Notes: generated by a model from the letters alone, not told the origin. 64,000 nt of DNA from an uncultured Methanosarcinaceae archaeon (GCA_963733675.1 CAVTET010000004.1:256001-320000), one strand, 5' to 3'; positions 20,721-32,187 are shown, numbered from the stretch's first letter. Made by a program: numbers and translations.

Positions 20721-20736
20721 ATTCACAATTGTGAAT
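20721..20736. promoter_or_regulatory. Palindromic operator ATTCACAATTGTGAAT (site 1)
   Basis: Perfect 16-bp palindrome between divergent SAMP and larE-like genes. Confidence 0.75.
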
Positions 20737-20808
20737 GATGTTATGAAATATAAAGTTTTTGGAACTTGCAGAAGAGAACTGTGAAAATCAAAAGGTCGGT
20801 ATTCATTC

Positions 20809-21606
20809 ATGGACAAAGGAAGTATACACGATGCATTGCTCAAAGAGCTTTCAGGATTTGATTGCTTACTCATTTCATATTCTGGGGGTATAGACAGCAC
20901 TTTACTTGCAATATTTGCGCAAAAGGCACTCCACGAGAGAGCCAAGTGTATACTTTTTGATGCGCCTATAGTCCCAAGAAGAGCAGTTAATGATGCAATT
21001 GAAATCGCATGTAAATTCGGTTTATCCTACAGCATATTGCCTTTTTCCATAATGGAAAATGAAGAATTCAGGAAAAATAGCCCCAATCGTTGCTACATTT
21101 GCAAAAAACAATCTGCAAGGATTTTACGGGAACAAACTGAAAAGCTGGGAATTTCAAATATAGCAGATGGAATCAATGCTTCAGATCTTGATGAATACCG
21201 TCCAGGGCTTCAAGCAAGTAATGAAGAAAAGATCATTCATCCCTTTCTTTCTCTAGAAATTCAAAAAACTGAAATAAGGCAAATAGCTAAGGAATGTGGT
21301 TTTGATTTTTGGAACAAACCTTCATCTTCATGCCTTGCATCGCGAATTCCATACGGTGACGAAATCACGCTCGAGAAGCTGGAAATGGTGGAAAACGCGG
21401 AGAATATAATGCACGATCTGGGTTTTTCCAATTTGCGTGTACGTCTGCATGGTAAAATTGCACGAATCGAGTTGATACCTGAAGAATTCGAGAAAGCAAT
21501 AAACATTCGACATAGAATCGGGGAGTTATTGCAAGAATGCGGTTTTTCTTATGTCACTCTCGATCTTAAAGGATATAGAAGCGGCAGTATGGATGAAGTG
21601 CTATGA
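20809..21606 (+). CDS. larE: ATP-dependent sulfur transferase LarE family (PP-loop)
   Basis: SYSGGIDST, NRCYICKK, DEYRPG, KPSSSCLASRIPYG, RVRLHG, GYRSGSMD. Confidence 0.88.
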   Translation: MDKGSIHDALLKELSGFDCLLISYSGGIDSTLLAIFAQKALHERAKCILFDAPIVPRRAVNDAIEIACKFGLSYSILPFSIMENEEFRKNSPNRCYICKKQSARILREQTEKLGISNIADGINASDLDEYRPGLQASNEEKIIHPFLSLEIQKTEIRQIAKECGFDFWNKPSSSCLASRIPYGDEITLEKLEMVENAENIMHDLGFSNLRVRLHGKIARIELIPEEFEKAINIRHRIGELLQECGFSYVTLDLKGYRSGSMDEVL

Positions 21607-21698
21607 AAATTGAAAATTATGTCGTTGATTTCCAGACACCTCAATATCTCCATCATGTGGATAATGCCGCAACAAGTCTGATTCATGATCAGTCATGA
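21603..21698 (+). pseudogene. N-terminal remnant of a cysteine desulfurase-like gene
   Basis: MKIENYVVDFQTPQYLHHVDNAATSL, ATGA-coupled to larE; resembles DFP...YLDNAATS. Confidence 0.55.
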
Positions 21699-22420
21699 CT
21701 TTGATTAACGAATACAATCGACAATATCACGCTAATGTGCAGTTTCAACCTTTTACACTAGAACAGGGAATACACATATATATAGGATTTTTTGGATAGG
21801 ATATTAAGGTCCGTATAAATAATGGCTGTCTGTAGACTCAATGCTCTTATAAGGTAATAAGTTCTGGATTAATACATTAAGTGGGCTTTTCCCAGACAAC
21901 TGTTACTTGTTGAAGAAGATTTTCCTCTGAAATGGTAAGAAAATTTCTGATAGCCAATATTTCTATTGTTGCCTCCAAAGTACCACCACTAATCCCGCCA
22001 TAAGTATGGGAAACGATCAGATTTTGTTATTGTTGAACGTTGTCCAAAGTCAAAACAGAAACATCTACACCAACATGAACAGGGGTAAGAATCATGAATG
22101 TGTTTGATCATACCATCCTGAACACTCTGCTTGATAGAACTTGGACTCTTTTAGAGAGGTCTCATCATTTTCGTTGGTATAAATTAGTGATTTAGAATAA
22201 ATTTATTAAGCATCATATAACTCTTTCTGCCCTGGATCTGTCTGATTTCCATAGCAAAATCAGAACAGAACCTCCCACCGATTATATTAAAAATTTCGAT
22301 AACTCACCGATTTTCACAAGTCATTTATATGCTATTTATAAGCATGTAATGAAATTAAGAAGTTTATCGAAATCTTCTATATATTCCAGTATGGAACGTA
22401 ATACTCCTAGACTGATATTT

Positions 22421-23377
22421 TCAGGTGGACTGTTGATCTTGTACTTGTTCTTTGAATCGATTCCAGTTCCAAGGTTCATCAAGGATATTGACACTAACTT
22501 TTTCTATTCCGCCCACGTTCAGAACTTTTCGCTTTACTTGGTCCTTGAGGTATTCTGCCATAGGGCAAATATTTGTTGTCAATACAAGGTTTACGTCTAC
22601 ATTTGCTCCATCCACAATTACTTCTTTGACCATCCCCATCTTGACAATATCTATACCAACCTCTGGATCGATTACTTGTTTCAGCTGGGAATAAATTTGT
22701 TCATCTTTTTTAGGAACGGTTTTTTGTAAAAATGTCCTGTGCAAAGGTGCATATTTTTGTGCATGAGCCTGTTCTTCTAGCCTGCTCAACCTGTCAAGCA
22801 TTTGGCTTACTAAAGACAGCATGGGGTCAGGTAACTTATTGTGATCCAGTTGCCCTGCAGATACCGCTGGCTGTGGCTCTGCAATTCTGGCAGGGACCCC
22901 CACAACAGTAGCTTCGGGTGGGACTGATCGAATTACAACCGAGCCTGCACCTACTTTAGCACCTCTTCCAATAGTAATTGGTCCAAGTACAATCGAACCT
23001 GAACCAAGAACAACGTCTTTCTCAACAGTAGGATGGCGTTTTATCCTCTCAAGGGCTGTTCCTCCAAGTACAACTCCCATGTATATGAGGACGTCATCAC
23101 CTACTTCAGCAGTTTCACCAATTACTACGCCAGACCCATGATCAATAAATACCCGCTTTCCGAGTTTTGCTCCAGGGTGAATCTCAATTCCTGTAAGTGT
23201 CCTGGAGATATGGGATAGCAAACGAGCAAAAAAAAAGAAATGTTTTTCCCAGAGAAAGTGAGATAATCGATGAAACCAGACAGCATGCAGTCCTGGATAA
23301 CAGCAAAGTACTTCCAGAGTAGACCTTGCTGCAGGATCTTTTTCAAAAACTGTCCTTACATCTTCCCTGATTCCCAT
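22421..23377 (-). CDS. cysE: Serine O-acetyltransferase with C-terminal DUF59 (SufT/MIP18-like) domain
   Basis: [41 protein letters not shown]-terminal [16 protein letters not shown]...LTTNICPM...PWN. Confidence 0.93.
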
Positions 23378-29897: not shown

Positions 29898-30278
29898 ATG
29901 GATTACAGCGCTAAAGTGATGGACCATTTTTTAAATCCCAGAAATATGGGAAGTATTGAGAACAGTGATGGAATAGGTGAGGTTGGAAACGCAAAATGCG
30001 GAGATTTAATGAAGATATTCCTCAAAATAGACGGAGATCGGATTGCAGACGTGAAGTTCCAGACGTTTGGATGCGTGGCTGCAATCGCATCAAGCAGTAT
30101 GGCAACCAAACTAATCAAAGGAAGAACTCTGGAAGAAGCTTGGAATCTTTCAAATAAAGCAGTTGCAGAAGCGCTTGATGGGCTCCCACCGACAAAAATG
30201 CACTGTTCAATGCTTGCAGAAGAAGCAGTCCATGAAGCTATTAACGACTATCTCAGAAAAAAAGGACTTGAGTCCTGA
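29898..30278 (+). CDS. iscU: Fe-S cluster scaffold IscU/NifU
   Basis: YSAKVMDHFLNPRN, CGD, FGCVAAIAS, KMHCS. Confidence 0.96.
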   Translation: MDYSAKVMDHFLNPRNMGSIENSDGIGEVGNAKCGDLMKIFLKIDGDRIADVKFQTFGCVAAIASSSMATKLIKGRTLEEAWNLSNKAVAEALDGLPPTKMHCSMLAEEAVHEAINDYLRKKGLES

Positions 30279-30529
30279 ATAGAATGATTTGTTATAACTA
30301 TTCAGCCTACTAAAAATCAACTTATTGATATTGATTTTTATGTAGCAGACAAATGCTATTACTAGCCATGCTAAAAAGCGTGATTAAAAGCCAACAATTG
30401 ATGCAAATTATTTCAGAAAAGTATCCCAATTAAATCTTAAAAAAGGTGGCTATTGATGTTTATTTATCCGCTTAGAATAGTTACTATTTACTTTAAAAAT
30501 ATCAAGGATCCAAATTTTGGAGAAGAAGA

Positions 30530-31261
30530 ATGGATAAAAATATAACTGGAAAATATATCCGGCAAATAATGCTTTTTGGAGTAGAAGGCCAGGAAAAATT
30601 AAGCAAGGCAAGAGTATTTGTTGCTGGAACAGGGGGGTTAGGGTCTCCGATCTCAACTTACCTCGCGGTTGCAGGTATCGGGGAAATAATAATTGCAGAT
30701 TTTGATATAGTAGATTCCAGCAATCTGAATAGACAGTTTCTCCACCATGAAAGAGACATTGGAAGAGATAAGGTAGAATCTGCGAAAGAAAAACTTATTT
30801 CTCTAAATCCTGAAATAAAAGTGGATACGATCAAGGAAAAAATAACTGATGAAAATGTAAGCTCAATAGTCCCTCTTTGTGACCTGATCATAGATGCGCT
30901 TGACAATTTTGAGACTAGACATTCTTTGAATAAGCTTTCAGTTGAACGAAAAATACCCCTTATTCACGGCGCAGTATCAGGGTACAGGGGCCAAGTGACA
31001 ACAGTAATCCCAGGAAAAACACCATGTCTTTGCTGTTTATTCCCTAGCTCATTCAAAAAAGAAGTATTTCCGGTACTTGGAACAACCCCAGGAGTAATTG
31101 GTGCGATTCAGGCAAATGAAGCGATTAAATATATAACAGGCCAGGGAAAGCTTCTGGAAAATCGTCTCTTGTTATGGGACGGTTTTTCATGCTCTTTTAG
31201 CGAACTAAATGTTAACAAAACAGATAATTGTCCGGTATGCGGAATTAATGGGAAAGGATGA
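30530..31261 (+). CDS. ubaA: ThiF/MoeB/UbaA family adenylyltransferase (SAMP-activating E1)
   Basis: YIRQI, GTGGLGS, SNLNRQ, DALDNF, PCLCC, CPVCG. Confidence 0.9.
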   Translation: MDKNITGKYIRQIMLFGVEGQEKLSKARVFVAGTGGLGSPISTYLAVAGIGEIIIADFDIVDSSNLNRQFLHHERDIGRDKVESAKEKLISLNPEIKVDTIKEKITDENVSSIVPLCDLIIDALDNFETRHSLNKLSVERKIPLIHGAVSGYRGQVTTVIPGKTPCLCCLFPSSFKKEVFPVLGTTPGVIGAIQANEAIKYITGQGKLLENRLLLWDGFSCSFSELNVNKTDNCPVCGINGKG

Positions 31262-32155
31262 TAATTAAAAACTGATTTCTTTATTTTTACTCCTGCTGTT
31301 TGATGAACAAGATTATTATGGAAAACTGGAAAATTGCAGAAGAAATAAAAAACTTAGCAAATAAACGAATACAATAATCTTTGTACATTTTTACACACAT
31401 AATAAAGTTCAGAGCATTGAGGATTTTGTTGCAGATTTTCTTTCCCCTATAAAGTAGCAGTGATCTCAAAAGTTGGGTTTATAGTTTTTGCAGGCGTTCA
31501 TTTAATGGCAGACTCGACACCAATTATTTTTATTAAAATAATAATTATTTTATCTATTCAGAATTTAGGCTACCAGTGAAAGAATCATAACTGCAAAGTA
31601 TTTTAAAATTTGAGAAGGAAAACATCTAAAAGTAATTGTCATATGCTATGTTAATAACTCAGTCATAGTAAAAGCGGAATCTTGTATCTACACAAGTCTG
31701 CACCCAATAAATGTAGTAGATTTTATTGAAAACTGGTAGAGTATTTTCATTCCAGATAAAAATCTAGAAAAATTTGTATCCCTTCACACCAACAAAAAGC
31801 ATCACAGCATAAAATTTTTTGTACGTATTGAGTGCAAGTCTGAAATTATTAAACTTGCAGACCGCGTTCTTAGCATCTGAAATTATAACAAATATAAAAA
31901 GATCATGTTCTAAGGGATTTATAATCGAAACAGAAAAAGAAATAGTTAAAAATTTGAAAAGAAAATTCTATAATAAAAAAGATGTCCTGCTTCAGAGAAG
32001 GCCTTTTGCTATAATCTGGAGAAAAGTACTTCCTGATTTAATTTTAAGGAAAGCCGGGCGAATTAATTCTTCAACTACTCACTGAATATTTTCTTAAAGT
32101 ACTCTCGCCCATACTCTCCTTTTCTCGTATTAAGAAATAAATATTTATACTCGTA

Positions 32156-32187
32156 TCACAAATGCGATAATGCTGTCACAATTGTGA
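32156..32187. promoter_or_regulatory. Tandem operators TCACAAATGCGA and TCACAATTGTGA downstream of TATA box (upstream of metX)
   Basis: ATTTATA at 32143-32149 followed by a 2-mismatch and a perfect core site. Confidence 0.7.

Follow-up and report, generated by a model that had tools for sequence, protein, structure and literature searches.

A conserved palindrome and a candidate repressor for sulfur assimilation genes in Methanosarcina

Methanogens need very large amounts of Fe-S (iron-sulfur) clusters, and they have unusual ways of making cysteine, one of them on tRNA. What controls the genes that answer this demand? The question is raised by a stretch of 64,000 nucleotides (nt) from an uncultured Methanosarcinaceae archaeon, hereafter the window, which corresponds to positions 256001-320000 of contig C4 in the G000 assembly (3,920,191 bases, or 3.92 Mb, with 36% G+C). 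Genes for cysteine, Fe-S cluster and methionine synthesis are found there around the gene of a small helix-turn-helix (HTH) protein, P0001, and their promoters share the 12-bp palindrome TCACAATTGTGA. A first-pass annotation of the window had taken this palindrome for the operator of a sulfur regulon and the HTH protein for its repressor. The literature that we searched describes no transcription factor for the sulfur, cysteine or Fe-S genes of methanogens, and it yielded nothing on the motif (as TCACAATTGTGA, TAACAATTGTTA or TTCACAATTGTGAA), on the protein or on the arrangement of tRNA-Cys genes presented below. The comparisons reported here make it probable that TCACAATTGTGA serves as operator for a regulon of sulfur assimilation in Methanosarcina, bound by P0001 as a predicted repressor with cysteine-based sensing.

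The window contains four perfect copies of TCACAATTGTGA in its 64 kb, and none of 100 dinucleotide-preserving shuffles of the window contains any. The first (20723-20734) lies in the divergent promoter region between an apparently truncated MoaD/SAMP-like gene on the minus strand and larE on the plus strand, the second (24656-24667) in the cysK-cysE promoter, where it is followed by a leader of ~230 nt, and the third (28398-28409) in the promoter of the regulator gene itself, ending 10 nt short of its ATG at 28387. The fourth (32176-32187) is the second site of the metX promoter, whose first site (32156-32167) has decayed to the two-mismatch variant TCACAAATGCGA and is perfect in the genomes G006, G007 and G004. 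The iscS promoter carries the one-mismatch variant TAACAATTGTGA (28581-28592), in a place where most other species have two sites. Two of the perfect copies are embedded in the 16-mer ATTCACAATTGTGAAT (20721-20736 and 24654-24669). The motif and variant positions given in the first-pass annotation are thus accurate, as is its remark that the window holds no perfect copy outside an 11.5-kb span, to which four further copies elsewhere in the genome have to be added. When up to two mismatches are allowed, the window has 10 matches for 4.78 expected, a mild enrichment, so that only the perfect and one-mismatch copies stand out. In the whole genome, the eight perfect copies exceed the counts of 60 control palindromes made of the same half-site letters (median 0, runner-up 3), and none of the eight falls within an open reading frame (ORF) of at least 150 amino acids (aa), although 46% of the genome does; this is the genome-wide scan that the first-pass annotation had suggested. 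The flanks of 80 distinct perfect sites extend the consensus to (A)TTCACAATTGTGAA(T), with T at position -1 in 85% of the half-sites, and second operator copies are found 19-20 bp away, centre to centre.

The other four copies of G000 complete the picture with tRNA-Cys. Two of them (C1:179111 and C3:561071) each have a decayed tRNA-Cys-like sequence no more than ~30 nt behind, and real tRNA-Cys(GCA) genes lie 400-900 nt beyond. At C1:179300 the operator precedes a leader of ~390 nt, a tRNA-Cys, a SepCysS paralogue (SepCysS2) and an O-acetylhomoserine sulfhydrylase (OAHS) gene; the tRNA-Cys, at C1:179704, is called by a tRNA finder and stands between the operator and the coding gene. The last copy (C4:573075) has no obvious gene downstream. 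Within the window, ARAGORN found no tRNA and Rfam found none either; only a decayed remnant in the metX leader aligns. This stretch (about 32212-32282, plus strand) is homologous to the intact tRNA-Cys(GCA) genes that occupy this position in G007 and G004, an alignment that identifies the metX-leader element as a decayed tRNA-Cys copy and the site at 32156 as the remnant of a perfect first operator. An Rfam search of window positions 19000-35000 and of the loci L001-L003 detected no riboswitch or leader family, only two real tRNAs. The 393-nt SepCysS2 leader of G000 gave only short BLASTN patches against the collected loci, and we therefore claim no conserved RNA there.

The same palindrome was then followed in 59 Methanosarcina genomes, in which orthologues were called at E values up to 1e-25. 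Summed over these genomes, TCACAATTGTGA has 357 copies, against 32 of the reversed control word. The G006 genome has an operator 8-11 nt before each of its three tRNA-Cys genes, one heading the SepCysS2-OAHS genes, two before metX, one before cooS and two before an ORF of 95 aa. In G007 and G004 the operator precedes metX or OAHS-metX, iscS2-iscU2-nadA, cysK-cysE, OAHS and the SepCysS2 locus, as well as a SufS-like gene accompanied by fdhD, and cooS together with the gene of an SsuA-like binding protein, and G004 has two copies within the larE region beside the regulator gene. ARAGORN predicts an intact tRNA-Cys between the operator and metX (G007), OAHS-metX (G004), OAHS (G007) and SepCysS2 (G006 and G004). 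A perfect operator stands 8-10 nt before a variant tRNA-Cys in 25 instances from 13 of the 59 genomes, and the reversed control never does; the motif is invariant in these 25 promoters while the 8-10 nt spacer varies. The iscS promoter was compared in 18 loci. Eight of them have a TATA box followed by TCACAATTGTTA (TGACAATTGTTA in one), 6-7 nt and TCACAATTGTGA; the other ten comprise the single one-mismatch site of G000 and G019, one decayed pair and seven loci whose iscS promoter falls outside the 330 nt examined. The motif stays unchanged while its flanks diverge, in a phylogenetic footprinting of the kind also suggested in the first-pass annotation. The regulon members in G000, G004, G006 and G007 are all sulfur-handling enzymes or RNAs. 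The sulfur regulon is therefore supported, and it is wider than had been claimed, since the same 12-mer also precedes tRNA-Cys, SepCysS2-OAHS, SufS-like/fdhD and cooS genes.

Where do these sites stand relative to the promoter elements? By sequence reading, a TATA-like box can be placed 5-25 nt upstream of every site in the window. On the minus strand, the box of the MoaD-like gene (20746-20755) is followed by the site 11 nt on, that of cysK (24684-24692) leaves a gap of 16 nt, and that of the regulator gene (28429-28437) a gap of 19 nt. The iscS box (28550-28561) is separated from the variant site by 19 nt, and the metX box (32139-32150) from the decayed site by 5 nt and from the perfect site by 25 nt. 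The earlier reading that the sites lie behind TATA-like boxes is borne out by these gaps, with the site lying upstream of the box on the larE side. Peat metatranscriptomes supply contigs from relatives at 95-99% identity; contig ends fall at 32183 (metX; one contig) and, within the cysK leader, at 24640/24641, and one contig spans the entire 20586-20889 intergenic region. Contig ends do not give transcription starts, and their fit to starts at the operators is a weak hint.

The candidate regulator P0001 (28019-28387, minus strand) has 122 aa, a probable XRE-type HTH and cysteines at positions 9, 91, 94 and 107. Its family has 767 cluster representatives at E values up to 0.001 and bears no Pfam or NCBIfam annotation beyond weak HTH_3 matches; 42 of 50 members match HTH_3 at E values up to 0.01 (best 2.4e-8), and the neighbours of P0001 in the protein atlas are archaeal HTH_3 clusters. 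The Rrf2 family (PF02082) does not match P0001 even at E values up to 10, and it does not appear in the list of 25 families for the 50 members. The near-invariant residues of these 50 members are P8, C9, P18, Q35, A48, S50, Y52, K56, R57, G58, C91 and C94. Three of them, C9, C91 and C94, occur in at least 90% of the members and are invariant in the 16 closer homologues, and one or two more C-terminal cysteines follow C91 and C94 in the family (C107 in P0001). The AF2 model of P0001 (pLDDT 83.8) has helices at 8-30, 35-42, 46-54, 65-79 and 86-98, with the HTH at 35-54 (helices 2-3) and a disordered tail that bears cysteines. The three near-invariant cysteines suggest Fe-S or thiol sensing by P0001.

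Four lines connect this protein with the palindrome. In 18 loci the regulator's own promoter carries a perfect site (G000 and G019), TTACAATTGAGA (10 of 18) or nearer variants (6 of 18). An orthologue is present in 50 of the 59 Methanosarcina genomes, and all 50 hold the motif. Among the nine genomes without an orthologue, four have no copy, one has a single copy and four have 7-12 copies, the latter including G023, whose orthologue is cut by a contig end. Beyond the genus, 79 loci were collected, and the 36 analysed from outside Methanosarcina comprise 193,902 nt. The degenerate pattern T.ACA..TGT.A has 38 matches in them, whereas its reversed control has 3; the matches are spread over 24 of the 36 loci, leaving 12 without any, and 16 have cysK and cysE within 3 kb. 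In Methanoregula (62-67% identity), iscS-iscU-thiF, TAACAATTGTGA and TGACAATTGTGA, the homologue and larE follow one another in this order. ANME-1, ANME-2 and other Methanosarcinales carry TAACAATTGTTA at a distance of 29-70 nt ahead of the homologue, in many cases next to ycaO or thiF. The genomes G039 and G031 have this word only once, and G026 and G035, which both lack the homologue, do not have it. In Methanobacterium (40-46% identity) the genes are ordered cysK-cysE-homologue...OAHS. There TAACAATTGTTA follows a TATA box in front of cysK and also precedes OAHS, where it is often paired. Protein and palindrome also vary together: the half-sites read ..GTGA where the protein has ..IAPSAVSQY.. 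and ..GTTA where it has ..ITQ(A/P)AVSQY.., so that the residues before the recognition helix (APS vs TQA/TQP) change together with operator positions 2-3. These comparisons show, at the level of sequence, an operator-protein linkage and co-variation that span four orders. The site at its own promoter, the co-occurrence, the co-varying palindromes of the homologues and the matched changes of residues and operator support P0001 as the predicted regulator. As an observation apart, the Methanobacterium loci L170-L189 have a second type of palindrome, ATAACATATGTTAT or ATAACTATAGTTAT, ~100 nt before the homologue, which is found together with TAACAATTGTTA both in the promoter of the homologue itself and in that of cysK.

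The mechanism that we propose is as follows. P0001 would most likely bind the palindrome as a dimer and, when bound, would deny TBP/TFB or RNA polymerase access to the promoter; such an occlusion is expected from the place of the sites, which come after the TATA box and probably before the first transcribed bases and are often paired at 19-20 bp from each other. The position of the sites suggests that P0001 represses both the sulfur genes and its own gene. C9, C91, C94 and the fourth cysteine nearer the C-terminus would probably hold an Fe-S cluster or carry out thiol chemistry, keeping P0001 on the DNA when the supply of sulfur, cysteine or Fe-S is sufficient and releasing it when the supply is short. 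In G000, the predicted regulon would comprise MoaD-like/larE, cysK-cysE, iscS-iscU-thiF, metX, the regulator gene, the tRNA-Cys-like elements and the SepCysS2-OAHS operon.

Some observations weigh against this proposal. P0001 itself has only sub-threshold Cro/HTH_3 matches in Pfam (14.8 bits for HTH_3, cutoff 23), and the fifth cysteine of most orthologues is a Phe in it. Structure searches returned no close solved structure for P0001: Foldseek ranks XRE or Cop proteins first, with weak E values (0.45-1), and the best VIA comparison, also weak, is with the DeoR DNA-binding domain (Z 4.8). For the transcription starts, the hints from RNA contigs mentioned above are weak. The related genomes are non-independent samples. 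Moreover, the motif-free genomes G009, G011 and G013, as well as G020 with its single copy, also lack cysK, iscS2, metX and SepCysS2, and the presence/absence profile is thus unable to single out the regulator. Finally, the main counter-example is G006 (10 contigs, 99% complete), with 10 perfect sites but neither the orthologue nor cysK nor iscS2; its only related protein is a 38% paralogue beside a SUI1-like gene. G016 (75% complete) and G053 (89%) resemble it in having copies of the motif and no orthologue.

The case of G006 leaves room for another binder. The operator could be that of a real sulfur regulon and be recognized by the 36-38% paralogue or by an unrelated factor, P0001 being merely one of the regulated proteins. 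The 7-10 perfect copies kept by G006, G016 and G053 would then have an explanation, the more so as the paralogue is intact in G006, G016 and G013 with the same AAVSQY recognition helix as P0001, and as small winged-helix ORFs follow the double operators of G006 and G004. Nevertheless, the paralogue is also present in G013, G009 and G011, which have no perfect copy at all, and a scan of the motif-free genomes at one mismatch gave 6, 6 and 2 matches against 4, 4 and 2 for the controls, leaving no trace of a hidden regulon. The 27 loci scanned, which were paralogue promoters and iscS paralogue loci, do not hold the motif, only two two-mismatch words at chance level, and the G000 paralogue is broken by three stops while eight sites persist. 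A foreign binder does not explain, either, why homologues of P0001 in four orders have co-varying palindromes at their own promoters. We thus regard this alternative as unlikely. The sister genome of G006, G010, holds the orthologue and is 93.2% identical to it over 5.3 kb, a closeness that makes a recent loss in G006, with sites that have not yet decayed, plausible; such an account would fit a lost repressor better than a lost activator.

That last point also bears on the sign of the regulation. P0001 could bind the motif mainly as an activator, or in a dual role, and turn the sulfur genes on when its cysteines signal a shortage. The larE site, which lies ~12 nt upstream of the shared TATA-like box, is a further observation against simple repression, its position being also compatible with activation; some archaeal factors activate from positions upstream of the TATA box. 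The sites of cysK, iscS, metX, the regulator gene and tRNA-Cys are nevertheless downstream of the box, and the first site of iscS and metX directly abuts it, which are the usual places for archaeal repressors. Besides, the target operons of G006 are apparently intact without the orthologue, a situation more easily explained by a lost repressor than by a lost activator. Activation as the main role consequently seems improbable. As for the idea that the repeats are the footprint of a duplicated promoter-plus-tRNA-Cys cassette devoid of regulatory role, it could invoke the tRNA-Cys genes or remnants that follow many copies (C1:179111, C3:561071, the metX leader of the window and the 25 instances in 13 genomes), but it is very hard to sustain given that no tRNA remnant accompanies the sites of cysK, iscS, the regulator gene and larE, that the motif is exact while flanks and spacers differ, and that no tRNA-like sequence was noticed in the flanks viewed of the Methanobacterium cysK and OAHS palindromes, where no tRNA scan was run; duplication may explain the spread of the operator, not its retention. 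Repression by P0001 through TCACAATTGTGA thus remains the reading that we favor: the conserved sulfur regulon appears real, and P0001 is a well-supported candidate regulator from an uncharacterized and widespread archaeal family.

The genes of the window deserve a closer description. Most of the labels of the first-pass annotation are confirmed by NCBIfam and Pfam, the exception being its "SAMP" gene, which turns out to be a truncated MoaD-like ORF without the C-terminal Gly-Gly. This ORF (20359-20613, minus strand) matches MoaD profile positions 1-67 of 88, below the cutoff; it ends in ...FLMIQ and misses the ~20 last positions of the profile. An IS6 transposase gene (19627-20331) abuts it, and metatranscriptome contigs of relatives diverge from the window at ~20397, within the ORF, two reasons to think that it was probably truncated by the insertion. 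On its other side, larE (20809-21606, plus strand) encodes a LarE-family ATP-dependent sulfur transferase (TIGR00268, 286.6 bits, cutoff 150). The cysE gene (22421-23377, minus strand; NCBIfam and Pfam) encodes a serine O-acetyltransferase with a SufT/DUF59-like Fe-S assembly domain fused to its C-terminus (residues 225-312), and cysE is similar in length in G007 and G004. It is preceded by cysK (23408-24427, minus strand), a cysteine synthase A (TIGR01139, 467.8 bits). A 349-aa ORF of no known family (25815-26864), with internal repeats and copies on C12, C1 and C5, and an IS6 fragment (27097-27420) stand between cysK and the regulator gene, which are adjacent in most species; both have high depth in the RNA contigs.

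On the other side of the regulator gene, the plus strand carries iscS (28561-29787; NifS/IscS), iscU (29871-30278; NifU/IscU) and a ThiF/MoeB/UbaA-like E1 gene (30530-31261), all assigned by NCBIfam and Pfam. This cluster is the counterpart of IscS2/IscU2 (MA2718/MA2717) of M. acetivorans, described as adjoining methionine and NAD genes in the main text of Deere et al. (2020, PMC7585200), where a term search finds no mention of the neighbouring regulator gene. Further on, metX (32461-33981, plus strand; NCBIfam and Pfam) encodes a homoserine O-acetyltransferase with a C-terminal CBS pair, and a second, fragmented copy of it is found elsewhere in G000 (C12:142418-143922). A partial ORF (99 aa, 33956-34255) for a free-standing archaeal ThrRS editing domain directly follows metX; its full-length version (142 aa) is found near the cooS operator of G006 (L053 5664-6092). 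G000 also has two broken copies of the regulator family (C4:119156-119476 and C1:1054406-1054708), one with 64% identity and a TAA stop, the other being the usual paralogue with three stops.

Outside the window, the SepCysS paralogue of G000 is split into overlapping ORFs of 353 and 143 aa (L001 4703-6177, C1:179702-181176), which reflects either a frameshift or an assembly error; the gene is intact (462 aa) in G006. Just upstream of this tRNA-Cys/SepCysS2 locus lies the gene for P0002, a helical protein of 157 aa with no known family and a Tyr-Cys-Cys end (C1:178283-178756, L001 3284-3757; also L050 8315-8791). A search of 41 genomes recovered it in 10, all Methanosarcina, a distribution that misfits that of the motif, and it was discarded as a possible binder. 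The perfect operators before the gene for a cooS-type CO dehydrogenase catalytic subunit are at L053 4645 in G006 and L080 3632 in G007, where a gene for an SsuA-like sulfonate-binding protein comes next. The 95-aa ORF of no known family is preceded by two operators 29-52 nt apart in both G006 (L051 7178-8093) and G004 (L084 3781-4710), and it is followed by a small ORF of 88 aa with an HTH_24 match in G006 or of 84 aa in G004, without homologue in G000. As the 95-aa and 88-aa ORFs of G006 have no homologue in G000, they were rejected as binders, and so were the DUF2551 and 133-aa ORFs before the G006 metX, whose G000 orthologues are on C12, away from any perfect motif.

What could the association with tRNA-Cys mean? 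Passages of Mukai et al. (2017, PMC5424206) report that some archaea hold two SepCysS genes, and they contain no mention of a dedicated tRNA-Cys variant, of the operator or of tRNA-Cys in operon leaders. One may imagine that the variant tRNA-Cys, SepCysS2 and OAHS form an inducible and self-contained second route to Cys-tRNA, that the leader tRNA-Cys acts in cis, and that the repressor family is the general regulator of sulfur that has long been missing for methanogens and ANME archaea. The tRNA-Cys in the leaders of metX, OAHS and SepCysS2 could then be a processing signal for RNase P/Z, or a sensor bound by SepRS, SepCysS or CysRS. We offer this combination as a speculative possibility and would rather doubt that all of its parts hold. 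If it were true, transcription, via the repressor, and the fate of the mRNA, via the tRNA element, would both report on cysteine or sulfur status. In any case, tRNA-Cys genes under the same operator and inside the leaders of biosynthetic operons are an unusual link between tRNA supply and amino acid synthesis. The operator is concrete, the candidate protein has an orthologue in genetically tractable species and the regulon is predicted, all of which can be tested directly, and the pair of operator and protein is also seen in Methanobacterium, Methanoregula and ANME lineages.

It remains to compare P0001 with known systems. The first-pass annotation had called it an autoregulated repressor analogous to IscR and CymR; the site at its own promoter agrees with the autoregulation, but the likeness to IscR and CymR holds as an analogy only, because P0001 has a probable XRE-type HTH and does not belong to Rrf2. 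IscR of Escherichia coli, an Rrf2 protein, is a small autoregulated repressor encoded beside iscSU, with palindromic sites at the isc promoter and cysteine ligands thought to report Fe-S status. P0001 is likewise encoded beside isc and cysteine genes and has a palindromic operator at its own promoter, a functional likeness and not a membership: it differs in its HTH type, in its cysteine pattern (C9, C91-x2-C94, C107), in its archaeal promoter and in a cluster that is only predicted, and its regulon, unlike that of IscR, would also include cysteine and methionine synthesis and tRNA-Cys. CymR of Bacillus subtilis, another Rrf2 protein, is the master repressor of cysteine metabolism and senses through a complex with CysK and O-acetylserine. 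P0001 would share with it a cysK-linked control, although its fold family is different and the partnership with CysK and O-acetylserine is a feature of CymR. Among archaea, the nearest analogies, in logic and not in sequence, seem to be SurR, MsvR and NrpR. The DNA binding of SurR (sulfur-response regulator of Pyrococcus furiosus; CxxC) and of MsvR (a redox regulator of methanogens) is switched by cysteine chemistry, and their operators overlap promoter elements, but their folds (winged helix-ArsR type, or V4R domain), their motifs and their regulons (hydrogenase and S0 reduction, oxidative stress) differ from those of P0001. NrpR, the metabolite-responsive nitrogen repressor of methanogens, has palindromic and often paired operators over or just behind the transcription start, and its regulon is functionally coherent; it is a protein unrelated to P0001, with 2-oxoglutarate as its effector and another pathway under its control, and yet the logic of its operators is similar.

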